In this document: piece by piece, positions 7,055-63,875 of the stretch
Numbering within the stretch: position 1 is the first letter of the stretch
How the letters are laid out: each line of letters opens with the position of its first letter
Origin: Candidatus Krumholzibacteriia bacterium
GTDB lineage: Bacteria; Krumholzibacteriota; Krumholzibacteriia; LZORAL124-64-63
Reading direction: 5' to 3'
DNA: 64,000 nt
Assembly (NCBI GenBank): GCA_035447065.1
Contig: DAOTGJ010000004.1
Span: 12,231-76,230 of the forward strand
Notes under the pieces: generated by a model
What the model was told of the DNA's origin: nothing
What the model saw: only the letters and a program-made list of their open reading frames with translations
The model's database searches: none
Translations under genes and position numbers: made by a program

Positions 7055-7171
7055 GGCGTCTCCCGGCTGCGGGTCGCGGGCTCGCCTTGGGGGCGGCGGC
7101 CCTTTGGCGTATCATGACCCAAGCGCCGCCGCCTGCCAAGGGCGGCGCCCTCCCCTGCGGAAAGGAACCGC

Positions 7172-9121
7172 GTGCGTCTGCTTGGGATCGCCCTGCTGCT
7201 GCTGTCGACGCAAGCCTTGGCGCTGCCGCCGGCGCCGCCGTGCAAGCATGGGCTGAAGGCCCTGGCCGCGGACGACGGCGACGGCGACCGCGGCTTCGAC
7301 GTGCTGGCCTACGATCTGGATCTGAGCCTGGATCCCGCCGCCGCCCGCGTGGGCGGCACGGTGTCCGCATCGATCCGCCTGACCGACGCCGCCCTGGACT
7401 CCGTGCGCCTGGACCTGGTGCCGGAGCTGACCGTGAACGCCCTGACCTGGAACGGCGCGGCGGTCCCCTTCCGCCACGACGGCGAGCGCCTGGCCGTGCC
7501 CGTGCCCGCCGGGACCGCGGCGGCCTGCTCCCTGGCGGTCACCTACGGCGGCCGTCCGCCCCGCCACGGCGAGCTCTTCCTGGGGCTGGTCTTCCGCGAC
7601 CGCGGCACCTCCGCGGCGGATCCGCGCGGGCCCATCGTCTTCAACGTGAGCCAGCCCAGCAGCAGCCGCGCCTGGTGGCCGTGCAAGGACCACCCCGGCG
7701 ACAAGGCCCTGATGACCCTGCGCCTGACCGTGCCGGACACCCTGCGCGCGGTGGCCAACGGATACCAGGTGTCGGACACCGTCCTGGGCGACGGCCGCCG
7801 CACCACCGTCTGGCGCTCCGACTACCCCATGCCGCCGTACCTGGTGGGCGTGGCCGTGTCGGAGTTCGTGGAGACCGAGGAGGAATGCGCGGGCGTGGAC
7901 GGGCCCGTGGAGCTCACCTACCACCTCTGGCCGGAGCACGCCGACGCCGGCGCCGTCTTCTACCAGCCCACCTGCGCCATGCTGCAGTGGCTGGAGGAGC
8001 TGGCCGGCCCCTGGCCCTTCGCGGGCGAGCGCTACGGGCAGATGTCCGTGAAGTTCGGCGGGGCCATGGAGCACCAGACGTCCACCAGCTTCGGCGCGGG
8101 CATGATCGCGGAGGACGGGCGCTTCCGCGGCGTCATCGTGCACGAGCTGGCGCACCAGTGGTTCGGCGACCTGATGACGCCCGCGGAATGGTCGGACATC
8201 TGGCTCAACGAGGGCTTCGCCCGCTACTGCGAGGCCCTGTGGACCGAGCGCACCGAAGGCCGCGCCGCCTACCGGGCGTACCTGGACCTCATCGGGCCCC
8301 AGGGGCATCCGGACCTCTTCACGGCCGAGCGGCCGCTGAACGATCCCTCGCCCATCCTCTCGCTGCTGGTCTACGACAAGGGCGCCTGGGTGCTGCACAT
8401 GCTGCGCGGCGAGCTGGGCGACGCGCGTTTCTTCGAGTTCCTGCGAGACTACGCCGGCAGCACCGGCGGCGCGCCCGGCCACGTGACCGGCGCCGACGTT
8501 GTGGCCGCGGCCTCGCGCGCCGCGGGTCGCGACCTGAGCGGCTGGTTCCGGCCCTGGCTGGAGACCACGGCCGTGCCGGAGCTGGGCTGGAGCTGGCGCG
8601 CGGAGGCGGGCGCCGACGGCCCGCGCGGCGTGCTGCGGCTGGAGCAGCGGCAGGCGGAGCTCTTCGACCTGCGCGTGCCCGTGACCGTGGTGGCCGGCGG
8701 CGACAGCCTGCGCCTGCACGTGCGCCTGGACGGCCCCGCGGCCGAGGTGGACGTGCCCTGGACCGCGGCCCCGGACACGGTGCTGATCGATCCCGACGCG
8801 AGCCTGCTGCGCACCACGGCGGCCCTGCCCCCGCCTGCGCTCACCCTCGCGGCGCCGCACCCCAACCCGTCCGCGGGCGGCGACGTGGAGCTGCGCTACG
8901 TGGTGCGCCGCGCCGGGCCGGTGACCCTGGAGCTGCACGACGCCCGCGGCCGTCGCCTGGCGCGATGGGATCTGGGGGAGCATGCGGCCGCGGACGAGGC
9001 CGCGGCGTGGCACTGGAACGGCCGCGACGCCGAGGGCCGCCGCCTGCCCGCGGGCACCTACTGGTTCGCCCTGAGCGCCGGCGGCGCGCGTGCCGTGGAG
9101 AAGGTGGTGCTGCTGCGCTGA
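7172..9121 (+). CDS. secreted M1-family zinc aminopeptidase (aminopeptidase N-like) with a C-terminal FlgD-Ig/T9SS-type sorting-like domain
   Basis: Signal peptide MRLLGIALLLLSTQALA, GAMEH exopeptidase motif, HELAHQWFGD...WLNEGFA zinc site. The C-terminal ~90 aa (..HPNPSAGGDVELRYVV..LELHDARGRRLARWDLG..WNGRDAEGRRLPAGTYWF..) resemble a FlgD Ig-like or Por secretion tail. GTG start with AAAGGAA RBS. Confidence 0.85.
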   Translation: MRLLGIALLLLSTQALALPPAPPCKHGLKALAADDGDGDRGFDVLAYDLDLSLDPAAARVGGTVSASIRLTDAALDSVRLDLVPELTVNALTWNGAAVPFRHDGERLAVPVPAGTAAACSLAVTYGGRPPRHGELFLGLVFRDRGTSAADPRGPIVFNVSQPSSSRAWWPCKDHPGDKALMTLRLTVPDTLRAVANGYQVSDTVLGDGRRTTVWRSDYPMPPYLVGVAVSEFVETEEECAGVDGPVELTYHLWPEHADAGAVFYQPTCAMLQWLEELAGPWPFAGERYGQMSVKFGGAMEHQTSTSFGAGMIAEDGRFRGVIVHELAHQWFGDLMTPAEWSDIWLNEGFARYCEALWTERTEGRAAYRAYLDLIGPQGHPDLFTAERPLNDPSPILSLLVYDKGAWVLHMLRGELGDARFFEFLRDYAGSTGGAPGHVTGADVVAAASRAAGRDLSGWFRPWLETTAVPELGWSWRAEAGADGPRGVLRLEQRQAELFDLRVPVTVVAGGDSLRLHVRLDGPAAEVDVPWTAAPDTVLIDPDASLLRTTAALPPPALTLAAPHPNPSAGGDVELRYVVRRAGPVTLELHDARGRRLARWDLGEHAAADEAAAWHWNGRDAEGRRLPAGTYWFALSAGGARAVEKVVLLR

Positions 9122-35721: not shown

Positions 35722-35760
35722 GGCCAGGCGGCCGTGCCTGCGGTCGGCGTTGAGAGAACG

Positions 35761-36122
35761 GGAGGAAGCCGGTCGTAAGCCGGGTTCTGTTGCCGCGGAG
35801 CGGCGACGGTCATGTATCTGGGATCGCCGTTCCCGACGACCTCGTGCGACCTACCCGGGAGTCGAGCGAGGCGGGCCACCTCATCCTCCCCTATATGGTC
35901 TTGCTCCGGGTGGGGTTTACCATGCGACGCCTGTCACCAGCCGCCCGGTGAGCTCTTACCTCACCTTTTCACCCTTACCGCGGTCCGAGGACCGAGGCGG
36001 TATGTTTTCTGTGGCACTTTCCGTGGGATCGCTCCCCCTGGGGGTTACCCAGCACCCTGCCCTGAGGAGCCCGGACTTTCCTCACGCCGCGAGGGCGTGC
36101 GACCGTCTCCCCGACTTCCTCC
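35761..36122 (-). ncRNA. rnpB: RNase P RNA, bacterial type A
   Basis: The reverse strand reads GGAGGAAGUCGGGGAGACGGUCGC...GAGGAAAGUCCGGGCUCC...CACAGAAAACAUACCGCC...GGUAAACCCCACCCGGAGCAAG...ACAGAACCCGGCUUACGACCGGCUUCCUCC. The universal GGAAAGUCCGGGCUCC block is present. P1 pairing joins the 5' and 3' ends. Overall it is collinear with E. coli M1 RNA. Confidence 0.9.
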
Positions 36123-36975: not shown

Positions 36976-37052
36976 TGGTGGGCGATACTGGACTCGAACC
37001 AGTGACCTCTCGCGTGTGAGGCGAGCGCTCTAGCCAGCTGAGCTAATCGCCC
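36976..37052 (-). tRNA. tRNA-Val (anticodon CAC), CCA encoded
   Basis: Reverse strand GGGCGAUUAGCUCAGCUGGCUAGAGCGCUCGCCUCACACGCGAGAGGUCACUGGUUCGAGUCCAGUAUCGCCCACCA folds as a cloverleaf with anticodon loop CUCACAC. Confidence 0.9.
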
Positions 37053-37071
37053 ACGTTCTGGAGCCGGCGGT

Positions 37072-37147
37072 TGGTGGGCCCACCTGGATTTGAACCAGGG
37101 ACCGACCGGTTATGAGCCGGCTGCTCTGACCGCTGAGCTATGGGCCC
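37072..37147 (-). tRNA. tRNA-Met (anticodon CAU), elongator-type or tRNA-Ile2; G1-C72 paired so not an initiator
   Basis: Reverse strand GGGCCCAUAGCUCAGCGGUCAGAGCAGCCGGCUCAUAACCGGUCGGUCCCUGGUUCAAAUCCAGGUGGGCCCACCA. Confidence 0.85.
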
Positions 37148-38836: not shown

Positions 38837-40603
38837 CTATTCCCCCTCCCGCCGGGCGTGGGCGCGCAAGGCCTCCAGCTCCCGACGGCGGTTGCGGACC
38901 TGTTCCAGCCGCTGATGACAGTCGCGGACGATTCCCTCGTGATCGGCAGCTACCGCTCCTTCTTGATCGTTGAGCAGATCGGCGACGCCCTGCCGGTAGG
39001 CGTCGTCCCGCTCGTGCCACCGCGCCTGGACGAAGACCGCGGGGGCCGGGGCCGCGCCCCGCTCCCGCTCCTCCTCCCAATCGGTGAGGTCGTCCCGCAG
39101 CATCCGGACCCAGGCCGGCGCCACGTTGTAGGGGACCTCCGCGGCCAGCAGGGCCAGGGCGGCCTTGCCGGCGTCATCCTGCAGGGCGTGCACCAGCATC
39201 TGGCGCACCAGCCGCCAGGGGTCCACCCCCAGCAGCCGTTCCTGGGCTTCCGGCGGCGGCGGGGCCGACGGCCGCGGCGCCGGGCCGGGATCCGCGCCCT
39301 CGCGCGCGCCCGGGGCGCCGGCGTCCCGACGCTCCACCTCCCGCAGGACCACCTCGCGCGGCAGCTCGAACACCGCCGCGCACTCCTCCACCAGGTAGGC
39401 CCGCCGCACCGGATCCGGCACGCCGGCCAGGGTCTGCAGGGCCGTCTTGGCCGCCCGTTCCACGCCCTCGCGCCCCAGGCCGCTCTCGTCGGCCAGCCGC
39501 CGCAGCAGGGGCAGGTACGTGGGCGCGGCCTCCAGGATCTCCGTCAGGGCCGCCGCGTCGCGGGAGCCCAGGAAGGAGTCGGGATCCTCGCCGTCGGGCA
39601 GCAGGGCCACGTGGGGCTCCAGCCCGGCGGCCAGGGCCTGGGCCGCGGCCTTCACGGCGGCCTTGCGTCCTGCACGATCGCCGTCGAACAGCACGTACAG
39701 GGTCCGGCAGCCGCGATGCAGCGTCCGGGCCTGCTCCTCGGTGAACGCGGTGCCGCAGGTGGCCACGCTGTTGGTGAATCCCGCCTGCGCCAGGGCCATG
39801 AGATCCAGGTACCCCTCCACCAGGATGGCCTTGCGGTGCCGGGCGATGGGGATGCGCGAATGGGCGAACCCGTACAGGAGCTGACGCTTGTTGAAGTACG
39901 GATTCTCGGCCGTGTTCAGGTACTTGGGTTCCCCGTCCGCCAGGATGCGCCCCCCGAAGCCCGCCACGCGTTGCGCGACGTTCTTGACCGGAAAGATAAC
40001 CCGGTTGCGGAAATAGGCAAAAGGCGCGCCGCCGTCGCGGGCGCGAAGCAGATCGGCGCGCAGGGCCAGGTCCCGCCCCACCCCCTTGCGCTCCAGTTCT
40101 CCGGCCAGCCAGCCGGCCGGACCGCGGGCGAATCCCACCTGGTAGCGGCGCACGATCTCCTCGGCGAAGCCGCGTCCCTCCAGGTAGGCGCGGGCCTCGG
40201 CTCCGGCGTCGGACCAGTAGTCCTCCTCCCAGATCTCCGTGGCCGCCTCCAGGGCGCGGAAGTAGGCCTGCCGCTCCCCCTCGCCCTCGTCGTTCTCGGT
40301 CAGGTAGCGGGCCAGGTCGATGTTCAGGGGCCGCGCCAGCACCTCGATGGCCTCGGGGAAGGCCAGGCCCTGGAGCTTCATGAGGAAGGAGATGGCGTCG
40401 CCGCCCTCGCCGCAGCCGAAGCACTTGTAGATCTGCCGCTGGGGGTTGACGTGGAAACTCGGGGTGCGTTCGCGATGGAAGGGGCACAGCCCCTTGAAGG
40501 ACGTGCCGGCGGGCTTGAGGGTGACGTACTCCCTCACCACGGAGACGATGTCCGTCTCCTCCTTGATGCGCGTCACGATGTCCCTGGGAAGAACGGGCAC
40601 CAC
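38837..40603 (-). CDS. dnaG: DNA primase DnaG (probable GTG start)
   Basis: CHC2 zinc finger [30 protein letters not shown], Toprim domain (..[24 protein letters not shown]..). The track ORF 38837..42754 reads through upstream with no ATG. The first GTG (40603) or second GTG (40600) is preceded by GGGGAG. 588 aa. Confidence 0.85.
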
Positions 40604-40679
40604 GCGACTCCCCGGCCTGATGCGGATCCCACGACGATGTGACCCCACAACGTACCAGAGAACGCGGCAAAAGTCCAAT

Positions 40680-51866: not shown

Positions 51867-52451
51867 TCAGAAGCCCGCGCTCAGGCGCAGGATGGGGGCG
51901 CCGCCGCCCGTCGCGGGCGGCAGCTCGATGGGCTGGGGGATGTCCCCCGGATCCCAGGCGTCGGGCACGTGCACCGGATCCTCGTCGAACCGGTCCAGAT
52001 GGGCGCCCACGTAGGCGTCCAGGGCGATGAAGAACAGCGCGCCTCCCGCCCACCAGGCGTTGTCGCGCTTGATCTCCCAGAGATCTCCGTAGACGCCCAC
52101 GGCCGCCTCGAAACCGTCCGCCCCCCGCAGGGGTTCGATGCGGTCGCGGTAGCGTTCCGCCCGCCGGTCGAAGGTGACGACCCTGGCCAGGAACCAGCCC
52201 TCGAACCCGAAGGCCAGCGCGGCGCGCCACGCGTTGTCCGTGGCCAGCTGCCCCCAGCCCGGGAAGACCGCCGAGGTGAACACGGCCGCCGTGGGGCTCA
52301 CGCGCGGCCGGCCCAGCAGCGACGGCGCCGTGGGACGGGCGGCCGCCACGCTGTCGGCGTCCGTCACCCGGAGCGCCGACCCGGGCTGCGCCGCCGCGCC
52401 GGCGGCCAGCGCCAGCAGCAGCAGCGTCGCGATCCCGGCCCGGGCCCTCAT
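51867..52451 (-). CDS. secreted hypothetical protein (DUF5683-like; PGWGQ motif)
   Basis: Signal peptide MRARAGIATLLLLALAAGAAA, and ..SAVFPGWGQL.. resembling the DUF5683 family. It overlaps the downstream kinase gene by 4 nt. Confidence 0.45.
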   Translation of the reverse strand: MRARAGIATLLLLALAAGAAAQPGSALRVTDADSVAAARPTAPSLLGRPRVSPTAAVFTSAVFPGWGQLATDNAWRAALAFGFEGWFLARVVTFDRRAERYRDRIEPLRGADGFEAAVGVYGDLWEIKRDNAWWAGGALFFIALDAYVGAHLDRFDEDPVHVPDAWDPGDIPQPIELPPATGGGAPILRLSAGF

Positions 52452-53353
52452 GGCGTCGCCTCCCCGCGCGGCACGATCACGCGCAGCGCGCCCGCCCGCA
52501 AGCGGAATTCATGGCGTCCGGCCGGCAGGCGGTCCGGCTCGCCGTCCCAGTGCACGGCCAGCGGCTCCTCGCTCTCGAGCACCGCCGACGCCGCGCGCGG
52601 ATAGTGGACCCGGGGATGTCCCAGGTGATCTCCGGTCACGGCCTTGGGCAGCGTGCGCAGCAGGTCCCAGAGGCCCACGCGCCGCACCAGGCAGAAATCC
52701 AGGCGGCCGTCCCCCGGATCGGCCAGGGGCGTCAGCCGGAAGCCGCCGCCGCAGAGGGCGCCGTTGCCCACCTCGGCCAGGGTCCAGCGGCCGTCCAGAT
52801 CCCGCGGCTCAGGCGTCCCGTCCGGGAACGTCCAGCGCGCCCGCGGCGCCCGGTAGCGCCCCACCAGGGGCAGGGTGGCCAGGCTGTAGCGCAGGCCGCC
52901 CCAGCGGCGGGAGATGCGGGCCGCCCGCAGCGACGCCTCGCCGCTGAGGAAGAGCCCGCAGCTGTTCACGAACGGACGCCCGGCGAACTCGCCCAGGTCC
53001 AGCGGCCGGGTGCGGCCGCCCGTCAGGGCCGTCAGGCCGTCGTCCAGGGAGCGCAGCCCCAGGCCCCTGGCGAAGTCGTTGCCGCTGCCCGTGGGCAGCA
53101 CCGCCAGCGACGCGCCGCTGCCGGCCAGCCCGGCCGCCACCTCGCCCACCGTGCCGTCGCCGCCCACGGCCACCACCAGGTCGTGGCGCTCCGCCGCGGC
53201 GCGGGCCAGCTCCCGCCCGTGCCCCGCACCGGCGGTGTGCAGGAGCTCCGCGTCGCGGCCCGCGCGGGCCAGGGCCCGGCGCAGCTCTTCCGGATCGGGT
53301 CGGTCCCGATCGCGGCCGCTGATGGGATTCAGGACGACGGCGCAGGTCGGCAT
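52448..53353 (-). CDS. diacylglycerol kinase catalytic-domain family lipid kinase (YegS/BmrU-like)
   Basis: The true start is MPTCAVVLNPISGR with a GGAGG RBS. GGDGT motif VVAVGGDGTVGEVAAGL. The track ORF over-extends 5'. Confidence 0.75.
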   Translation of the reverse strand: MPTCAVVLNPISGRDRDRPDPEELRRALARAGRDAELLHTAGAGHGRELARAAAERHDLVVAVGGDGTVGEVAAGLAGSGASLAVLPTGSGNDFARGLGLRSLDDGLTALTGGRTRPLDLGEFAGRPFVNSCGLFLSGEASLRAARISRRWGGLRYSLATLPLVGRYRAPRARWTFPDGTPEPRDLDGRWTLAEVGNGALCGGGFRLTPLADPGDGRLDFCLVRRVGLWDLLRTLPKAVTGDHLGHPRVHYPRAASAVLESEEPLAVHWDGEPDRLPAGRHEFRLRAGALRVIVPRGEATP

Positions 53354-53451
53354 GGCCCTCCGGTCAACGGCGGCCGGCCGGCCGGGTTCCCCCGGGCGAC
53401 GGCCGTGCAGAACGGGGACGCGGCCGCGGCCGCGTCCCCGCATGCGCACAC

Positions 53452-53549
53452 TGGCGGGAATGTGTGGGAATCGAACCCACCTCGGACGGTTGACGCGCCC
53501 GACACAGGGATTTGAAGTCCCGGGGGACCACCAGGCCCCATCCACTCCC
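53452..53549 (-). tRNA. selC: tRNA-Sec (selenocysteine tRNA, anticodon UCA), CCA encoded
   Basis: Reverse strand GGGAGUGG-AU-GGGGCC-UGGU-GGUCCC-CCGGGA-CUUCAAA-UCCCUG-UG-UCGGGCG-CGUCAAC-CGUCCGA-G-GUGGG-UUCGAUU-CCCAC-ACAUUCCC-G-CCA, 98 nt. It shows all the bacterial Sec hallmarks: 8-bp acceptor (one GU, one terminal mismatch), 6-bp D-stem with 4-nt loop, anticodon loop CUUCAAA identical to E. coli selC, a 7-bp variable arm, 5-bp T-stem and G73 discriminator. Confidence 0.8.
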
Positions 53550-53612: not shown

Positions 53613-53996
53613 TCAGTTCCGCGCCGCGATCATCTCGATCTCCACCCGCGCGTCCACCGGCAGCCGCGCCACCTGCACGGCCGAGCGGGCCGGCGGGTCC
53701 ACGGCGAAGTAGCCCTTGTAGACCTCGTTCACCGCGGCGAAGTCGTTCATGTCCGCCAGGAAGACGGTCACCTTCACCACGTCGGCCAGGGTCATGCCGC
53801 CGGCCTCCACCACGGCGCGGGCGTTCTCCAGGGCGCGGCGCGCCTGCTCGGCCACGTCGGCCGACACGAACTTGCCCGTGCCGGGGTCCAGCCCCAGCTG
53901 CCCGGCCGTGAAAAGGAGCCCGCCGCTCACGATCCCCTGGCTGTAGGGGCCGATGGCGGCGGGCGCGGCGTCGGTACGGATGACGGTGCGGCTCAT
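53613..53996 (-). CDS. ridA: RidA family protein (YjgF/TdcF, reactive enamine/imine deaminase)
   Basis: 127 aa: ..AAPAAIGPYSQGIVSGGLLFTAGQL.., ..ARSAVQVARLPVDARVEIEMIA.. Confidence 0.9.
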   Translation of the reverse strand: MSRTVIRTDAAPAAIGPYSQGIVSGGLLFTAGQLGLDPGTGKFVSADVAEQARRALENARAVVEAGGMTLADVVKVTVFLADMNDFAAVNEVYKGYFAVDPPARSAVQVARLPVDARVEIEMIAARN

Positions 53997-57310: not shown

Positions 57311-57386
57311 TGGAGCCGATGTGGGGACTCGAACCCCAGACCTGCTCATTACGAGTGAGCTGCTCTACCAGCTGAGCTACATCGGC
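57311..57386 (-). tRNA. tRNA-Thr (anticodon CGU), CCA encoded
   Basis: Reverse strand GCCGAUGUAGCUCAGCUGGUAGAGCAGCUCACUCGUAAUGAGCAGGUCUGGGGUUCGAGUCCCCACAUCGGCUCCA. Confidence 0.9.
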
Positions 57387-57406
57387 CCGAATCGGGGGAT
57401 CGGAAA

Positions 57407-57482
57407 TGGTGCCTGGGGGCGGATTTGAACCACCGACACCCGCATTTTCAGTGCGGTGCTCTACCAACTGAGCTACCCAGGC
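57407..57482 (-). tRNA. tRNA-Phe (anticodon GAA), CCA encoded
   Basis: Reverse strand GCCUGGGUAGCUCAGUUGGUAGAGCACCGCACUGAAAAUGCGGGUGUCGGUGGUUCAAAUCCGCCCCCAGGCACCA. Confidence 0.9.
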
Positions 57483-57619: not shown

Positions 57620-58615
57620 TCAGGCGCGGCGATCGGCGTCGTCGTAGCCCCGCGGGTGGGCGGTGTGCCAGGCCCAGGCGTCGGCCACCACGGTGTCCAC
57701 GTCGCTGCGGCGGGGGCGCCAGCCCAGGAGCTCCGCGGCGCGGCCGTTGGCGGCCACCAGGCGGGCCGGGTCGCCTGCGCGGCGCGGGGCCACGGGCGGG
57801 TCCAGGGGTCGGCCGGTGACGCGGGCCGCGGCGTCCACGATCTCGCGCACCGACGTGCCGTCGCCCGTGCCCAGGTTCAGGGCCGTGAAGCCGGGCGTCG
57901 CCGCCCACTCCACGGCGCGCAGATGGGCGTCGGCCAGGTCCGACACGTGGATGTAGTCGCGGATGCAGGTGCCGTCGGGAGTGGGGAAATCGTCGCCGAA
58001 GATGCGGAAGCCCACCGCCGGATCCAGCAGCGAGCGCAGCAGGCGCGGAATGAGGTGGGTCTCGGGGTCGTGGTCCTCCCCCAGCGGGCCGTCCGCACCG
58101 CAGGCGTTGAAGTAGCGCAGGGCCACGGCCGCCACGCCCGCCTGATCCGCCACCGCGGCCAGGGCGCGCTCCACCGCCAGCTTGGTCTCGCCGTAGGGGT
58201 TCACCGGCGCCGTGGGCGCCGATTCCAGGATGGGCACGTCCTCCGGCTCCCCGTACACCGCCGCGGTGCTGGAGAACACGAAGCGCTCCACCCCCGCCGC
58301 GCTCACCGCGCGCAGCAGGTTCAGGCCGCCGCCCACGTTGTTGCGCCAGTACTTCAGCGGGTCGGTCACCGACTCGCCCACCAGGCTGAAGGCCGCGAAA
58401 TGCACCACCGCCCGGAAGCCGCCGCGGGCGAGCACGTCCGTGGTGAACGCCTCGTCCAGCAGGCTGCCCCGGTGCAGGACCGCCTCGGGGGGCAGGGCCG
58501 CGGGATGGCCGGTGCTGAAGTCGTCCAGCACCTCCACCTCATGGCCGGCGGCCAGCAGCCGCCGCGCCGTCACGCTGCCGATGTAGCCGGCGCCGCCGGT
58601 GACCAGGATCCTCAT
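57620..58615 (-). CDS. galE: UDP-glucose 4-epimerase
   Basis: MRILVTGGAGYIGS Rossmann motif, catalytic YGETK, ..FNACGA.. The true start at 58615 overlaps the uvrA stop (ATGA). The track ORF over-extends through uvrA. Confidence 0.9.
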   Translation of the reverse strand: MRILVTGGAGYIGSVTARRLLAAGHEVEVLDDFSTGHPAALPPEAVLHRGSLLDEAFTTDVLARGGFRAVVHFAAFSLVGESVTDPLKYWRNNVGGGLNLLRAVSAAGVERFVFSSTAAVYGEPEDVPILESAPTAPVNPYGETKLAVERALAAVADQAGVAAVALRYFNACGADGPLGEDHDPETHLIPRLLRSLLDPAVGFRIFGDDFPTPDGTCIRDYIHVSDLADAHLRAVEWAATPGFTALNLGTGDGTSVREIVDAAARVTGRPLDPPVAPRRAGDPARLVAANGRAAELLGWRPRRSDVDTVVADAWAWHTAHPRGYDDADRRA

Positions 58616-62345: not shown

Positions 62346-63875
62346 TCAGGACGAGGGTCGGGAGGGCTTCTTCGCAGGGGTCTGGGCCGGGACCGGTGTC
62401 TGGGACGGACCCGGGGACGGCTCCGTCGCGGGAGCGGAGGGGGGATCGGGGCAGCCGTCGTCGTCATCGACGCCGTCGTAGTCCTCGGCCTCGTTCGGGC
62501 AGGCGTCCAGGGCGTCGGGGATGCCGTCCAGGTCGTTGTCCAGGTCGGGGCAGCCGTCCTCGTCGCGGTAGCCGTCGAAGTCCTCGGGCTCGTCGGGGCA
62601 CGCGTCGTCGGCGTCGATGATGCCGTCGCCGTCGCGGTCCGGGGTCTCCTCCGGGCAGCCGTCGTCGTCCTCGTGGCCGTCGAAGTCCTCGGGCGTGTCG
62701 GGACAGGCGTCGCGCACGTCGGGGATGCCGTCGCCGTCGTTGTCGGGGTCGGGCAGGCCGTCGTCGTCCAGGTAGCCGTCGTGGTCCTCGGGGGCGTCGG
62801 GGGCCAGGTCGTAGGCGTCGGGGATGCCGTCCTCGTCGTTGTCGGGGTCGGGGCAGCCGTCGTCGTCGCGGAAGCCGTCGACGTCCTCGGGAGCGTCGGG
62901 GCAAGGGTCCAGGCGGTCGGGGATGCCGTCGCGGTCGCGGTCGCCGGCCGACACGGAGAAGCTCCAGCTCACGCCGGCGCTCAGCAGCATGTCGGGCATG
63001 GCGGGGCGGAAGGCGGTGGACGGATCGTCGAGCTGCAGGGGGACGTCGTAGGCCAGCGTGACCGCGGGGCCGGTCTCCCCGCCCCAGCGCAGGCCGCCGG
63101 TGAGAAACTCGGGCTGCTCGCGCGGGGCCGCCACGGCCTCGTCGTACACGTGACGCGTCCATTCCAGGAAGAGGCGCGCATCGCCGCGGCGGAACTCCAG
63201 GGCGACGCCCAGGACCAGGGGATCGTTGTCGCCGGCGTCGCCGCCGGCGGGCACCGCGGGATAGAGCAGGGGCCAGTCCTCCAGCACGTCGCCGCGCACG
63301 CCGCCCCGGCCGGCGTCGGCGGGCAGGGTCCAGCGGCCGGCGCGCAGGTGCACGCGCATCTCGGGGGCGGGACCGTCGGTCCAGGCGCGGGCGGTGAAGG
63401 CCAGGCCCGCGTAGCGCCGGGCGGCGCCGTCGCCCAGGCCGGCCGCCTCGTCGCCGGTGGGCAACGTAGCGCGCAGGTCCAGCGCCGCGCCCAGCCAGCT
63501 CGACGGCCGCCACGGCGTGAGCAGCAGGCCCACCTCCACATCGCCCGGGCCGGAGCGCGACGCGGGCTCCAGGCCCAGCTCGTCCAGCCCCGACAGCCCG
63601 AGCCAGGGCAGCCGCGCGCTCAGCCGCACCTCCGGACGCCAGCCCCAGGCCGCCGTCAGGGCCGTCTCGCGGCGGTCCGTGAACTGGTAGGTCTCGTCCG
63701 GGCTCCAATCGGTGGACGAGAGCGTGGTCTCCACGCCCAGCAGCAGCAGGCCCGGCGGCGGCGGCAGCGCCGACTCCTGCCGATGCAGACGGCTGGCGCG
63801 CTCCACGTCGCGCGCAACGGCGGGGAGTGCCAGCAGGGCCGCCAGGGCCGCGATGCCCAGGAACCTAGGCCTCAT
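62346..63875 (-). CDS. outer membrane protein with C-terminal thrombospondin type-3 (TSP3) calcium-binding repeats and a Pro-rich tail
   Basis: Signal peptide MRPRFLGIAALAALLALPAVA. The ~300-aa N-terminal region is beta-rich. It is followed by at least 7 tandem DxDxDGxxDxxDxCP-type repeats (DRDGIPDRLDPCPD, DEDGIPDAYDLAPD, DGDGIPDVRDACPD ...), then PSAPATEPSPGPSQTPVPAQTPAKKPSRPSS. No OmpA-like C-terminal peptidoglycan-binding domain is present. Confidence 0.7.
   Translation of the reverse strand: MRPRFLGIAALAALLALPAVARDVERASRLHRQESALPPPPGLLLLGVETTLSSTDWSPDETYQFTDRRETALTAAWGWRPEVRLSARLPWLGLSGLDELGLEPASRSGPGDVEVGLLLTPWRPSSWLGAALDLRATLPTGDEAAGLGDGAARRYAGLAFTARAWTDGPAPEMRVHLRAGRWTLPADAGRGGVRGDVLEDWPLLYPAVPAGGDAGDNDPLVLGVALEFRRGDARLFLEWTRHVYDEAVAAPREQPEFLTGGLRWGGETGPAVTLAYDVPLQLDDPSTAFRPAMPDMLLSAGVSWSFSVSAGDRDRDGIPDRLDPCPDAPEDVDGFRDDDGCPDPDNDEDGIPDAYDLAPDAPEDHDGYLDDDGLPDPDNDGDGIPDVRDACPDTPEDFDGHEDDDGCPEETPDRDGDGIIDADDACPDEPEDFDGYRDEDGCPDLDNDLDGIPDALDACPNEAEDYDGVDDDDGCPDPPSAPATEPSPGPSQTPVPAQTPAKKPSRPSS

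Follow-up and report, generated by a model that had tools for sequence, protein, structure and literature searches.

A selC gene for tRNA-Sec(UCA), very probably functional, between ridA and a lipid kinase gene in an uncultured Candidatus Krumholzibacteria bacterium

We found that positions 53452..53549 on the minus strand of the window, i.e., the whole 64-kb stretch of DNA analysed here, hold a 98-nt gene with an encoded CCA end that is recognized as a selenocysteine tRNA both by ARAGORN and by the Rfam family RF01852, and whose structure is supported by covariation in 46 clade sequences. At a probability of about 93%, we consider this gene to be the functional selC of an uncultured Candidatus Krumholzibacteria bacterium, with tRNA-Sec(UCA) as its product. 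The call is correct but ordinary, because the gene is detected by standard tools at default settings and its family is thoroughly known; knowledge of selenocysteine decoding itself is left unchanged by it. Its presence nonetheless carries a warning for annotation, namely that selenocysteine may be the meaning of some of the genome's TGA codons and that gene callers may split or truncate the selenoprotein genes in which they lie.

Detection and anatomy of the tRNA

ARAGORN, run on the 64-kb window, called five tRNA genes, one of which is a tRNA-SeC with the anticodon (tca) at tRNA position 35. Its coordinates on the minus strand are identical to those of the 98-nt tRNA with anticodon UCA that had been claimed in a preliminary description of this DNA; that description also terms the gene unannotated, a point of minor importance given that tRNA finders call it in their default mode. 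In a search of the whole window with curated thresholds, the Rfam model of bacterial tRNA-Sec (RF01852) matched at 53456..53549 (minus strand) over its entire length (model positions 1–91 of 91), and the general tRNA model did not win over it within the clan. The E-value of this match was 2.7e-12 for the 64-kb window with both strands and 1.2e-14 in a local scan. The Rfam score amounts to 70.1 bits, the gathering score of the model being 47 bits. With a covariance-model score above threshold and a Sec call by a tRNA finder, the gene belongs to the bacterial tRNA-Sec family. The match is real and far exceeds chance, the two independent detectors agree on its identity, and the family-level covariation presented below concurs with them.

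Where tRNA position i corresponds to window position 53550-i, the acceptor stem is formed by positions 1–8 (53542..53549, minus strand) and 87–94 (53456–53463) and consists of seven standard pairs (G1-C94, G2-C93, G3-C92, A4-U91, G5•U90, U6-A89, and G7-C88) followed by the non-standard G8•A87. A linker of two residues, A9 and U10, leads to the D arm (53524..53539, minus strand), in which a 6-bp stem (11–16/21–26) with one G•U pair closes the 4-nt loop UGGU. This arm is supported by the MFE fold, RNAalifold, and pair counts, with 97.8% of the cells paired and four of the six pairs changed on both sides. In the anticodon stem (27–32/40–45), four pairs, from G29-C43 to A32-U40, are solid, while the rest can be drawn either as C27-G45 with a C28•U44 mismatch or with U44 bulged, as in the Infernal/Rfam alignment. 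The anticodon UCA (53513..53515, minus strand; tRNA positions 35–37), given by ARAGORN and by the sequence, reads UGA and lies in the 7-nt loop CUUCAAA with U33. The long variable arm (53481..53504, minus strand; positions 46–69) has a 7-bp stem (48–54/62–68), four pairs of which have changed on both sides, and a 7-nt loop. It is followed by the T arm (53464..53480, minus strand) with a 5-bp stem (70–74/82–86) and the loop UUCGAUU. The discriminator G73 (tRNA position 95; 53455..53455, minus strand) precedes the CCA encoded at 53452–53454 (positions 96–98).

The acceptor/T register of elongator tRNAs is 7+5. With acceptor strands of 8 nt each and a T stem of 5 bp, the tRNA described here has an 8+5 register, but owing to G8•A87 it falls short of the 13 standard acceptor/T pairs seen in E. 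coli and Aquifex. A full set of 13 does not strictly define the family, as natural variants with 12 bp have been published (PMC5330540). The preliminary description had credited it with every structural hallmark of bacterial tRNA-Sec; nearly all of them are indeed present, the exceptions being the G8•A87 pair and the anticodon stem with its C•U mismatch or bulge. All arms were recovered by the MFE fold, yet its z-score of -1.22 is unremarkable at 73% G+C, and support for the fold therefore comes from the covariance model and the comparative data, not from energy.

By analogy with the established bacterial pathway, the tRNA would be charged with serine by SerRS, whose identity elements include G73 and a long variable arm (PMC9976931); both are found here, the latter with its 7-bp stem. 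The charged tRNA would then be turned into Sec-tRNA-Sec by SelA, with selenophosphate supplied by SelD; the feature that SelA recognises is the 6-bp D stem with a 4-nt loop (PMC7609411), and it would read the same feature in this tRNA. Delivery to UGA codons followed by a SECIS hairpin would fall to SelB rather than EF-Tu, with the extended acceptor/T helix as the determinant.

Conservation of the locus and the selenocysteine machinery

The placement of the tRNA gene between ridA and a lipid kinase gene, already given in the preliminary description, agrees with the Pfam domains of both neighbours. Upstream lies a RidA/L-PSP family gene (53613..53996, minus strand; PF01042, E 2e-43), whose stop is located 63 nt before the tRNA, and downstream a gene for a lipid kinase of the diacylglycerol kinase family (52448..53353, minus strand) with DAGK_cat and YegS_C domains (PF00781 and PF19279). 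NCBI names the upstream protein a RidA family protein of Candidatus Krumholzibacteria bacterium and assigns the kinase and a 509-aa protein encoded elsewhere in the window to the same organism. The gene order around the tRNA is uvrA, a NAD-dependent epimerase gene, tRNA-Phe, tRNA-Thr, glmM, glmS, ridA, selC, the DAGK_cat/YegS_C kinase gene, and a DUF5683 gene, followed by lepA, lepB, a HemN-like radical SAM gene, hrcA, grpE, and dnaJ. We determined that the block glmM-glmS-ridA-selC-(DAGK-DUF5683)-lepA is kept in about 60 related species-level genomes, in which protein identity to the window ranges from approximately 80% (glmS; L014, L018, and L034) down to approximately 47–60% (e.g., ridA and glmM). 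Labels of this type denote loci that hold copies of the window or its relatives in assemblies.

Relatives of the tRNA were collected in one scan of species-representative genomes with a pattern across the anticodon arm and the T arm. The scan gave 103 loci, with a tRNA-SeC(tca) call by ARAGORN in 100 of them, and these fall into a large group of MAGs (labelled Krumholzibacteriia, Eisenbacteria, Latescibacterota, or "Fibrobacteraceae," or without a classification) and a second group of Aquificota and a few others. Among independent assemblies that hold the tRNA region itself (L001–L007 and L010–L012), the tRNA is identical. The RidA, kinase, and 509-aa proteins of the window are also encoded on a 228-kb contig of MAG GCA_035399505.1, in GCA_964529345.1, in a metagenome contig of the JGI anaerobic-digester series, and in ENA and Logan assemblies.

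From the 46 distinct sequences of the clade, RNAalifold derived the same cloverleaf, 10 pairs of which have changed on both sides. When the full 8/5 structure was laid over these sequences, 91.8% of the cells held a standard pair, compared with 37–59% in slid controls, and the observed covariation score was reached by none of 500 column shuffles. Within the clade the T stem does not vary, which is partly because the search pattern demanded it, and the discriminator is G in all 84 of the related tRNA-Sec sequences.

The genes for the selenocysteine machinery were looked for in the window and beyond. Pfam scans of essentially all window ORFs gave no SelA, SelB, SelD, or (molybdopterin) formate dehydrogenase domains, a six-frame search of the window gave no SelA PLP-site, SelB G1, or SelD DFFxP motifs, and no in-frame TGA in the window was flanked by coding-like GC3 both before and after it. 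Neither sel genes nor TGA-interrupted ORFs were found in the approximately 16 kb of adjoining contig (some 10 kb on one side and 6 kb on the opposite side; L010 and L139), which brings the contig sequence covered to about 80 kb. In a protein database search, the SelD of the window MAG was not among the best 120 of more than 8,000 relatives of an Eisenbacteria SelD; within these best 120, the motif DVTGFGLLGH occurs exactly in 34 proteins, and its codons vary.

In Eisenbacteria-type relatives, selD is located between ridA and selC. These genomes share with the window the block of tRNA-Phe, tRNA-Thr, glmM, glmS, and ridA before selC and of DUF5683, lepA, lepB, the radical SAM gene, hrcA, grpE, and dnaJ after it; in contrast, the window block is devoid of selD, and its selC is followed by the DAGK-family kinase gene. 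In three of these relatives, the selD gene directly upstream of selC contains an in-frame TGA in the context ..VACAG*ASKLGP.. (L070:3781-4870, minus strand; L057:3556-4556, plus strand; L030:5270-6315, plus strand), and in L064 a Cys codon is present instead (..AGCAAKLGP..). This TGA occupies what we take, from E. coli SelD, to be the position of the catalytic Cys, the known Sec/Cys site of SelD. Four further metagenome SelDs (P0047, P0088, P0078, and P0032), chosen among the listed hits for a source pattern like that of the window MAG, proved to come from other organisms; they are encoded in the same block, with tRNA-SeC immediately downstream. Truncation of selenoprotein genes is visible here, since many of the Eisenbacteria-type SelD entries are approximately 306–320 aa long, the gene callers having apparently placed the start after the in-frame TGA. 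A separate arrangement was observed in a MAG labelled "uncultured Firmicutes," in which selC, selB, selA, and selD form a compact cluster (L050:960-5430) and the eighth acceptor pair of the tRNA-Sec is also G•A.

It could be argued that the window selC is a decaying relic, kept at its old site in a lineage that no longer has the Sec machinery. The 63-nt ridA-selC spacer of the window has no selD, though the sister lineage carries it at that place, and both the roughly 80 kb of contig without a sel gene and the absence of the MAG's SelD from the best 120 relatives would fit such a loss. The tRNA itself, however, is intact, scores well above threshold, and is the same in all the independent assemblies that hold its region. 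Moreover, the 33 distinct tRNA sequences, that of the window included, which have no adjacent selD show 100% pairing at nearly all stem positions, and lineages of this kind have acquired compensatory changes, such as U-A to C-G at acceptor pair 6 and a fully re-paired D stem in L020, which is the pattern left by purifying selection on a working tRNA. The tRNA is 84–96% identical to its relatives, against 50–65% for its flanks (63 nt upstream and 98 nt downstream), and a dead tRNA gene would not be kept in this state over such divergence. Because of the synteny of selC, the identity of the tRNA compared with its flanks, the compensatory stem changes, and the position of selD beside selC in the sister lineage, the loss of the machinery would seem very unlikely. 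On the same grounds it is reasonable to infer, with good indirect support, that the organism uses the Sec machinery and carries selA, selB, and selD elsewhere in its genome.

Taken over the relatives, the data suggest that the use of selenocysteine is widespread and vertically inherited in the little-studied candidate phyla labelled Krumholzibacteriia, Eisenbacteria, and Latescibacterota. In the library searched, no paper was found that mentions the trait in these phyla; its spread there, apparently unreported, is a mildly new point.

The eighth acceptor pair and comparison with other tRNAs

The eighth acceptor pair (window 53542/53463; columns 8/90 of alignment A1) is non-standard in 45 of the 46 distinct clade sequences, being G•A, A•G, A•A, or C•A, and Watson-Crick or G•U in the Aquificota and other outgroups. 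Both the G•A pair and the anticodon-stem mismatch or bulge of the window tRNA are common to its relatives. The position of G8•A87 corresponds to C7-G66 of E. coli tRNA-Sec, one of three pairs reported as determinants for SelB and antideterminants for EF-Tu (PMC9976931). Tentatively, and with the odds rather against it, the clade-wide and mostly purine•purine pair might represent a lineage-specific form of SelB/EF-Tu discrimination that co-evolved with the SelB of the clade, and hence a small structural subtype rather than neutral slack. The mismatch is variation within known limits, since natural bacterial tRNA-Sec species whose acceptor/T helix has 12 standard pairs, or whose anticodon stem has an additional base, are on record (PMC5330540); its clade-wide occurrence is a mildly new point.

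The window tRNA agrees with the 8/5 tRNA-Sec of E. coli and Aquifex aeolicus in its anticodon (UCA), in the length of its acceptor strands (8 nt) and of its T and D stems (5 and 6 bp), in the 4-nt D loop and the long variable arm, and in having G73 and an encoded CCA. It differs in the G•A at the eighth acceptor pair and in the anticodon stem, which is composed of four invariant pairs and a C•U mismatch or U bulge instead of six clean pairs. Natural atypical bacterial tRNA-Sec species with a 12-bp acceptor/T helix (7/5; the Cloacimonetes type, Epsilonproteobacteria, and others) or an extra base in the anticodon stem have been described in the Secmarker paper (PMC5330540). Like the former, the window tRNA has only 12 standard acceptor/T pairs, and like the latter it has one additional or unpaired nucleotide in the 3' strand of its anticodon stem, which can be compared with the bulge reported at position 43a. 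Unlike the 7/5 species, however, it retains eight residues on both acceptor strands and thus represents an 8/5 form with a mismatch, not a shortened stem; none of the types described in PMC5330540 combines the 8/5 register with such a conserved mismatch.

Two other kinds of tRNA, described by Mukai et al. (2017) and summarized in PMC7609411, were considered as candidates. There, selC*-type tRNA-Cys is characterized by a U73 discriminator, an 8/4 shape, and an A51a bulge, and allo-tRNA by a 12-bp acceptor domain in the 8/4 or 9/3 form. Neither kind matches the window tRNA, which differs from the former in its G73 and in the bulge-free T stem of 5 bp, and from the latter in having this 5-bp T stem in an 8/5 register.

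A look-alike that inserts an amino acid other than selenocysteine at UGA, be it a tRNA-Cys of the selC* type or a serine-inserting opal suppressor of the allo-tRNA(UCA) kind, would nevertheless share several features with the window tRNA, as such tRNAs have a long variable arm and an extended acceptor stem and can carry UCA (PMC7609411), and as the non-standard eighth pair leaves seven plus five standard acceptor/T pairs. We regard this as highly improbable, in view of the G73, the 5-bp T stem, the 8-nt acceptor strands, and the SelA-type D arm with its 6-bp stem and 4-nt loop, and also in view of the orthologous copies that lie immediately after selD.

Transcription and surrounding genes

A promoter consensus scan detected no sigma-70-like promoter in the 63-nt spacer between ridA and the tRNA. 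Because of this, selC may depend on read-through from the operon before it, with the tRNA being excised from a transcript that would end at a GC-rich hairpin downstream. The candidate for the latter is a perfect 26-nt GC-rich palindrome, GGGGACGCGGCCGCGGCCGCGTCCCC (53414..53439, minus strand), which begins 12 nt past the CCA of the tRNA and has a weak U tract, GUUCUG. A consensus terminator scan did not call this hairpin; it was revealed by folding, in which the 60 nt downstream of the tRNA reached -40.9 kcal/mol. The closest relatives (L018, and L014, L034, and L110) have strong hairpins of other sequence at the same place, followed by UUUUU in the L014 group. The palindrome is therefore a probable terminator or 3'-processing hairpin.

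In enterobacteria, selC marks the edges of genomic islands. An island whose edge is selC and whose cargo is made up of the kinase and DUF5683 genes would account for the presence of the DAGK gene after selC in only a subset of the relatives, others having DUF5683 or lepA directly after selC, but we consider it scarcely credible here, given that the 3' end of the tRNA is not repeated anywhere in the window even when three mismatches are allowed, that no integrase or mobile-element domain was found among the neighbours, and that several species-level relatives share the order DAGK-DUF5683-lepA at 46–63% protein identity, a finding indicative of vertical inheritance.

The genes of the window are nearly all housekeeping genes on the minus strand. 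Apart from those around selC, they encode methylmalonyl-CoA mutase subunits, GatA, GatB, an M1 peptidase, UvrD/PcrA, outer-membrane proteins of the Omp85/TamB type, and RseP, and further include dxr, uppS, pyrH, rpsB, rpsI, rplM, a gene for an IF-2B-family protein, maf, and dtd, as well as relA/spoT, recJ, the RNase P RNA gene, a gene for an RNase H-like protein, tRNA-Val, tRNA-Met, rpoD, dnaG (38950-40650, upstream of rpoD), mutS2, cvpA, and a gene for a YqeY protein.

Several minor observations concern these surroundings. The RNase P RNA is of the bacterial class A and was matched over its full length with 304.8 bits (35760-36119, minus strand). The tRNA genes other than selC are arranged in two pairs, one of tRNA-Phe(gaa) and tRNA-Thr(cgt) (57311-57482, minus strand), which is situated upstream of glmM and kept in the distant relatives L124, L130, and L131, and one of tRNA-Met(cat) and tRNA-Val(cac) (36976-37147, minus strand). 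The epimerase gene (57620-58615, minus strand; L001/L002:5382-6377) is annotated as a single protein of 331 aa in the NCBI and ENA records of this organism, and as two fragments of 113 and 52 aa in its JGI record. The 509-aa protein (62346-63875, minus strand), whose gene is preceded by a DUF1844 gene, is hypothetical according to NCBI and gave no Pfam match at E <= 0.001. In turn, the M1 peptidase (7118-9121, plus strand) ends in a C-terminal FlgD_ig-like domain; in bacteria of the FCB group, domains of this kind often act as tags for sorting or secretion, and the presence of one here would be in keeping with the taxonomic placement.
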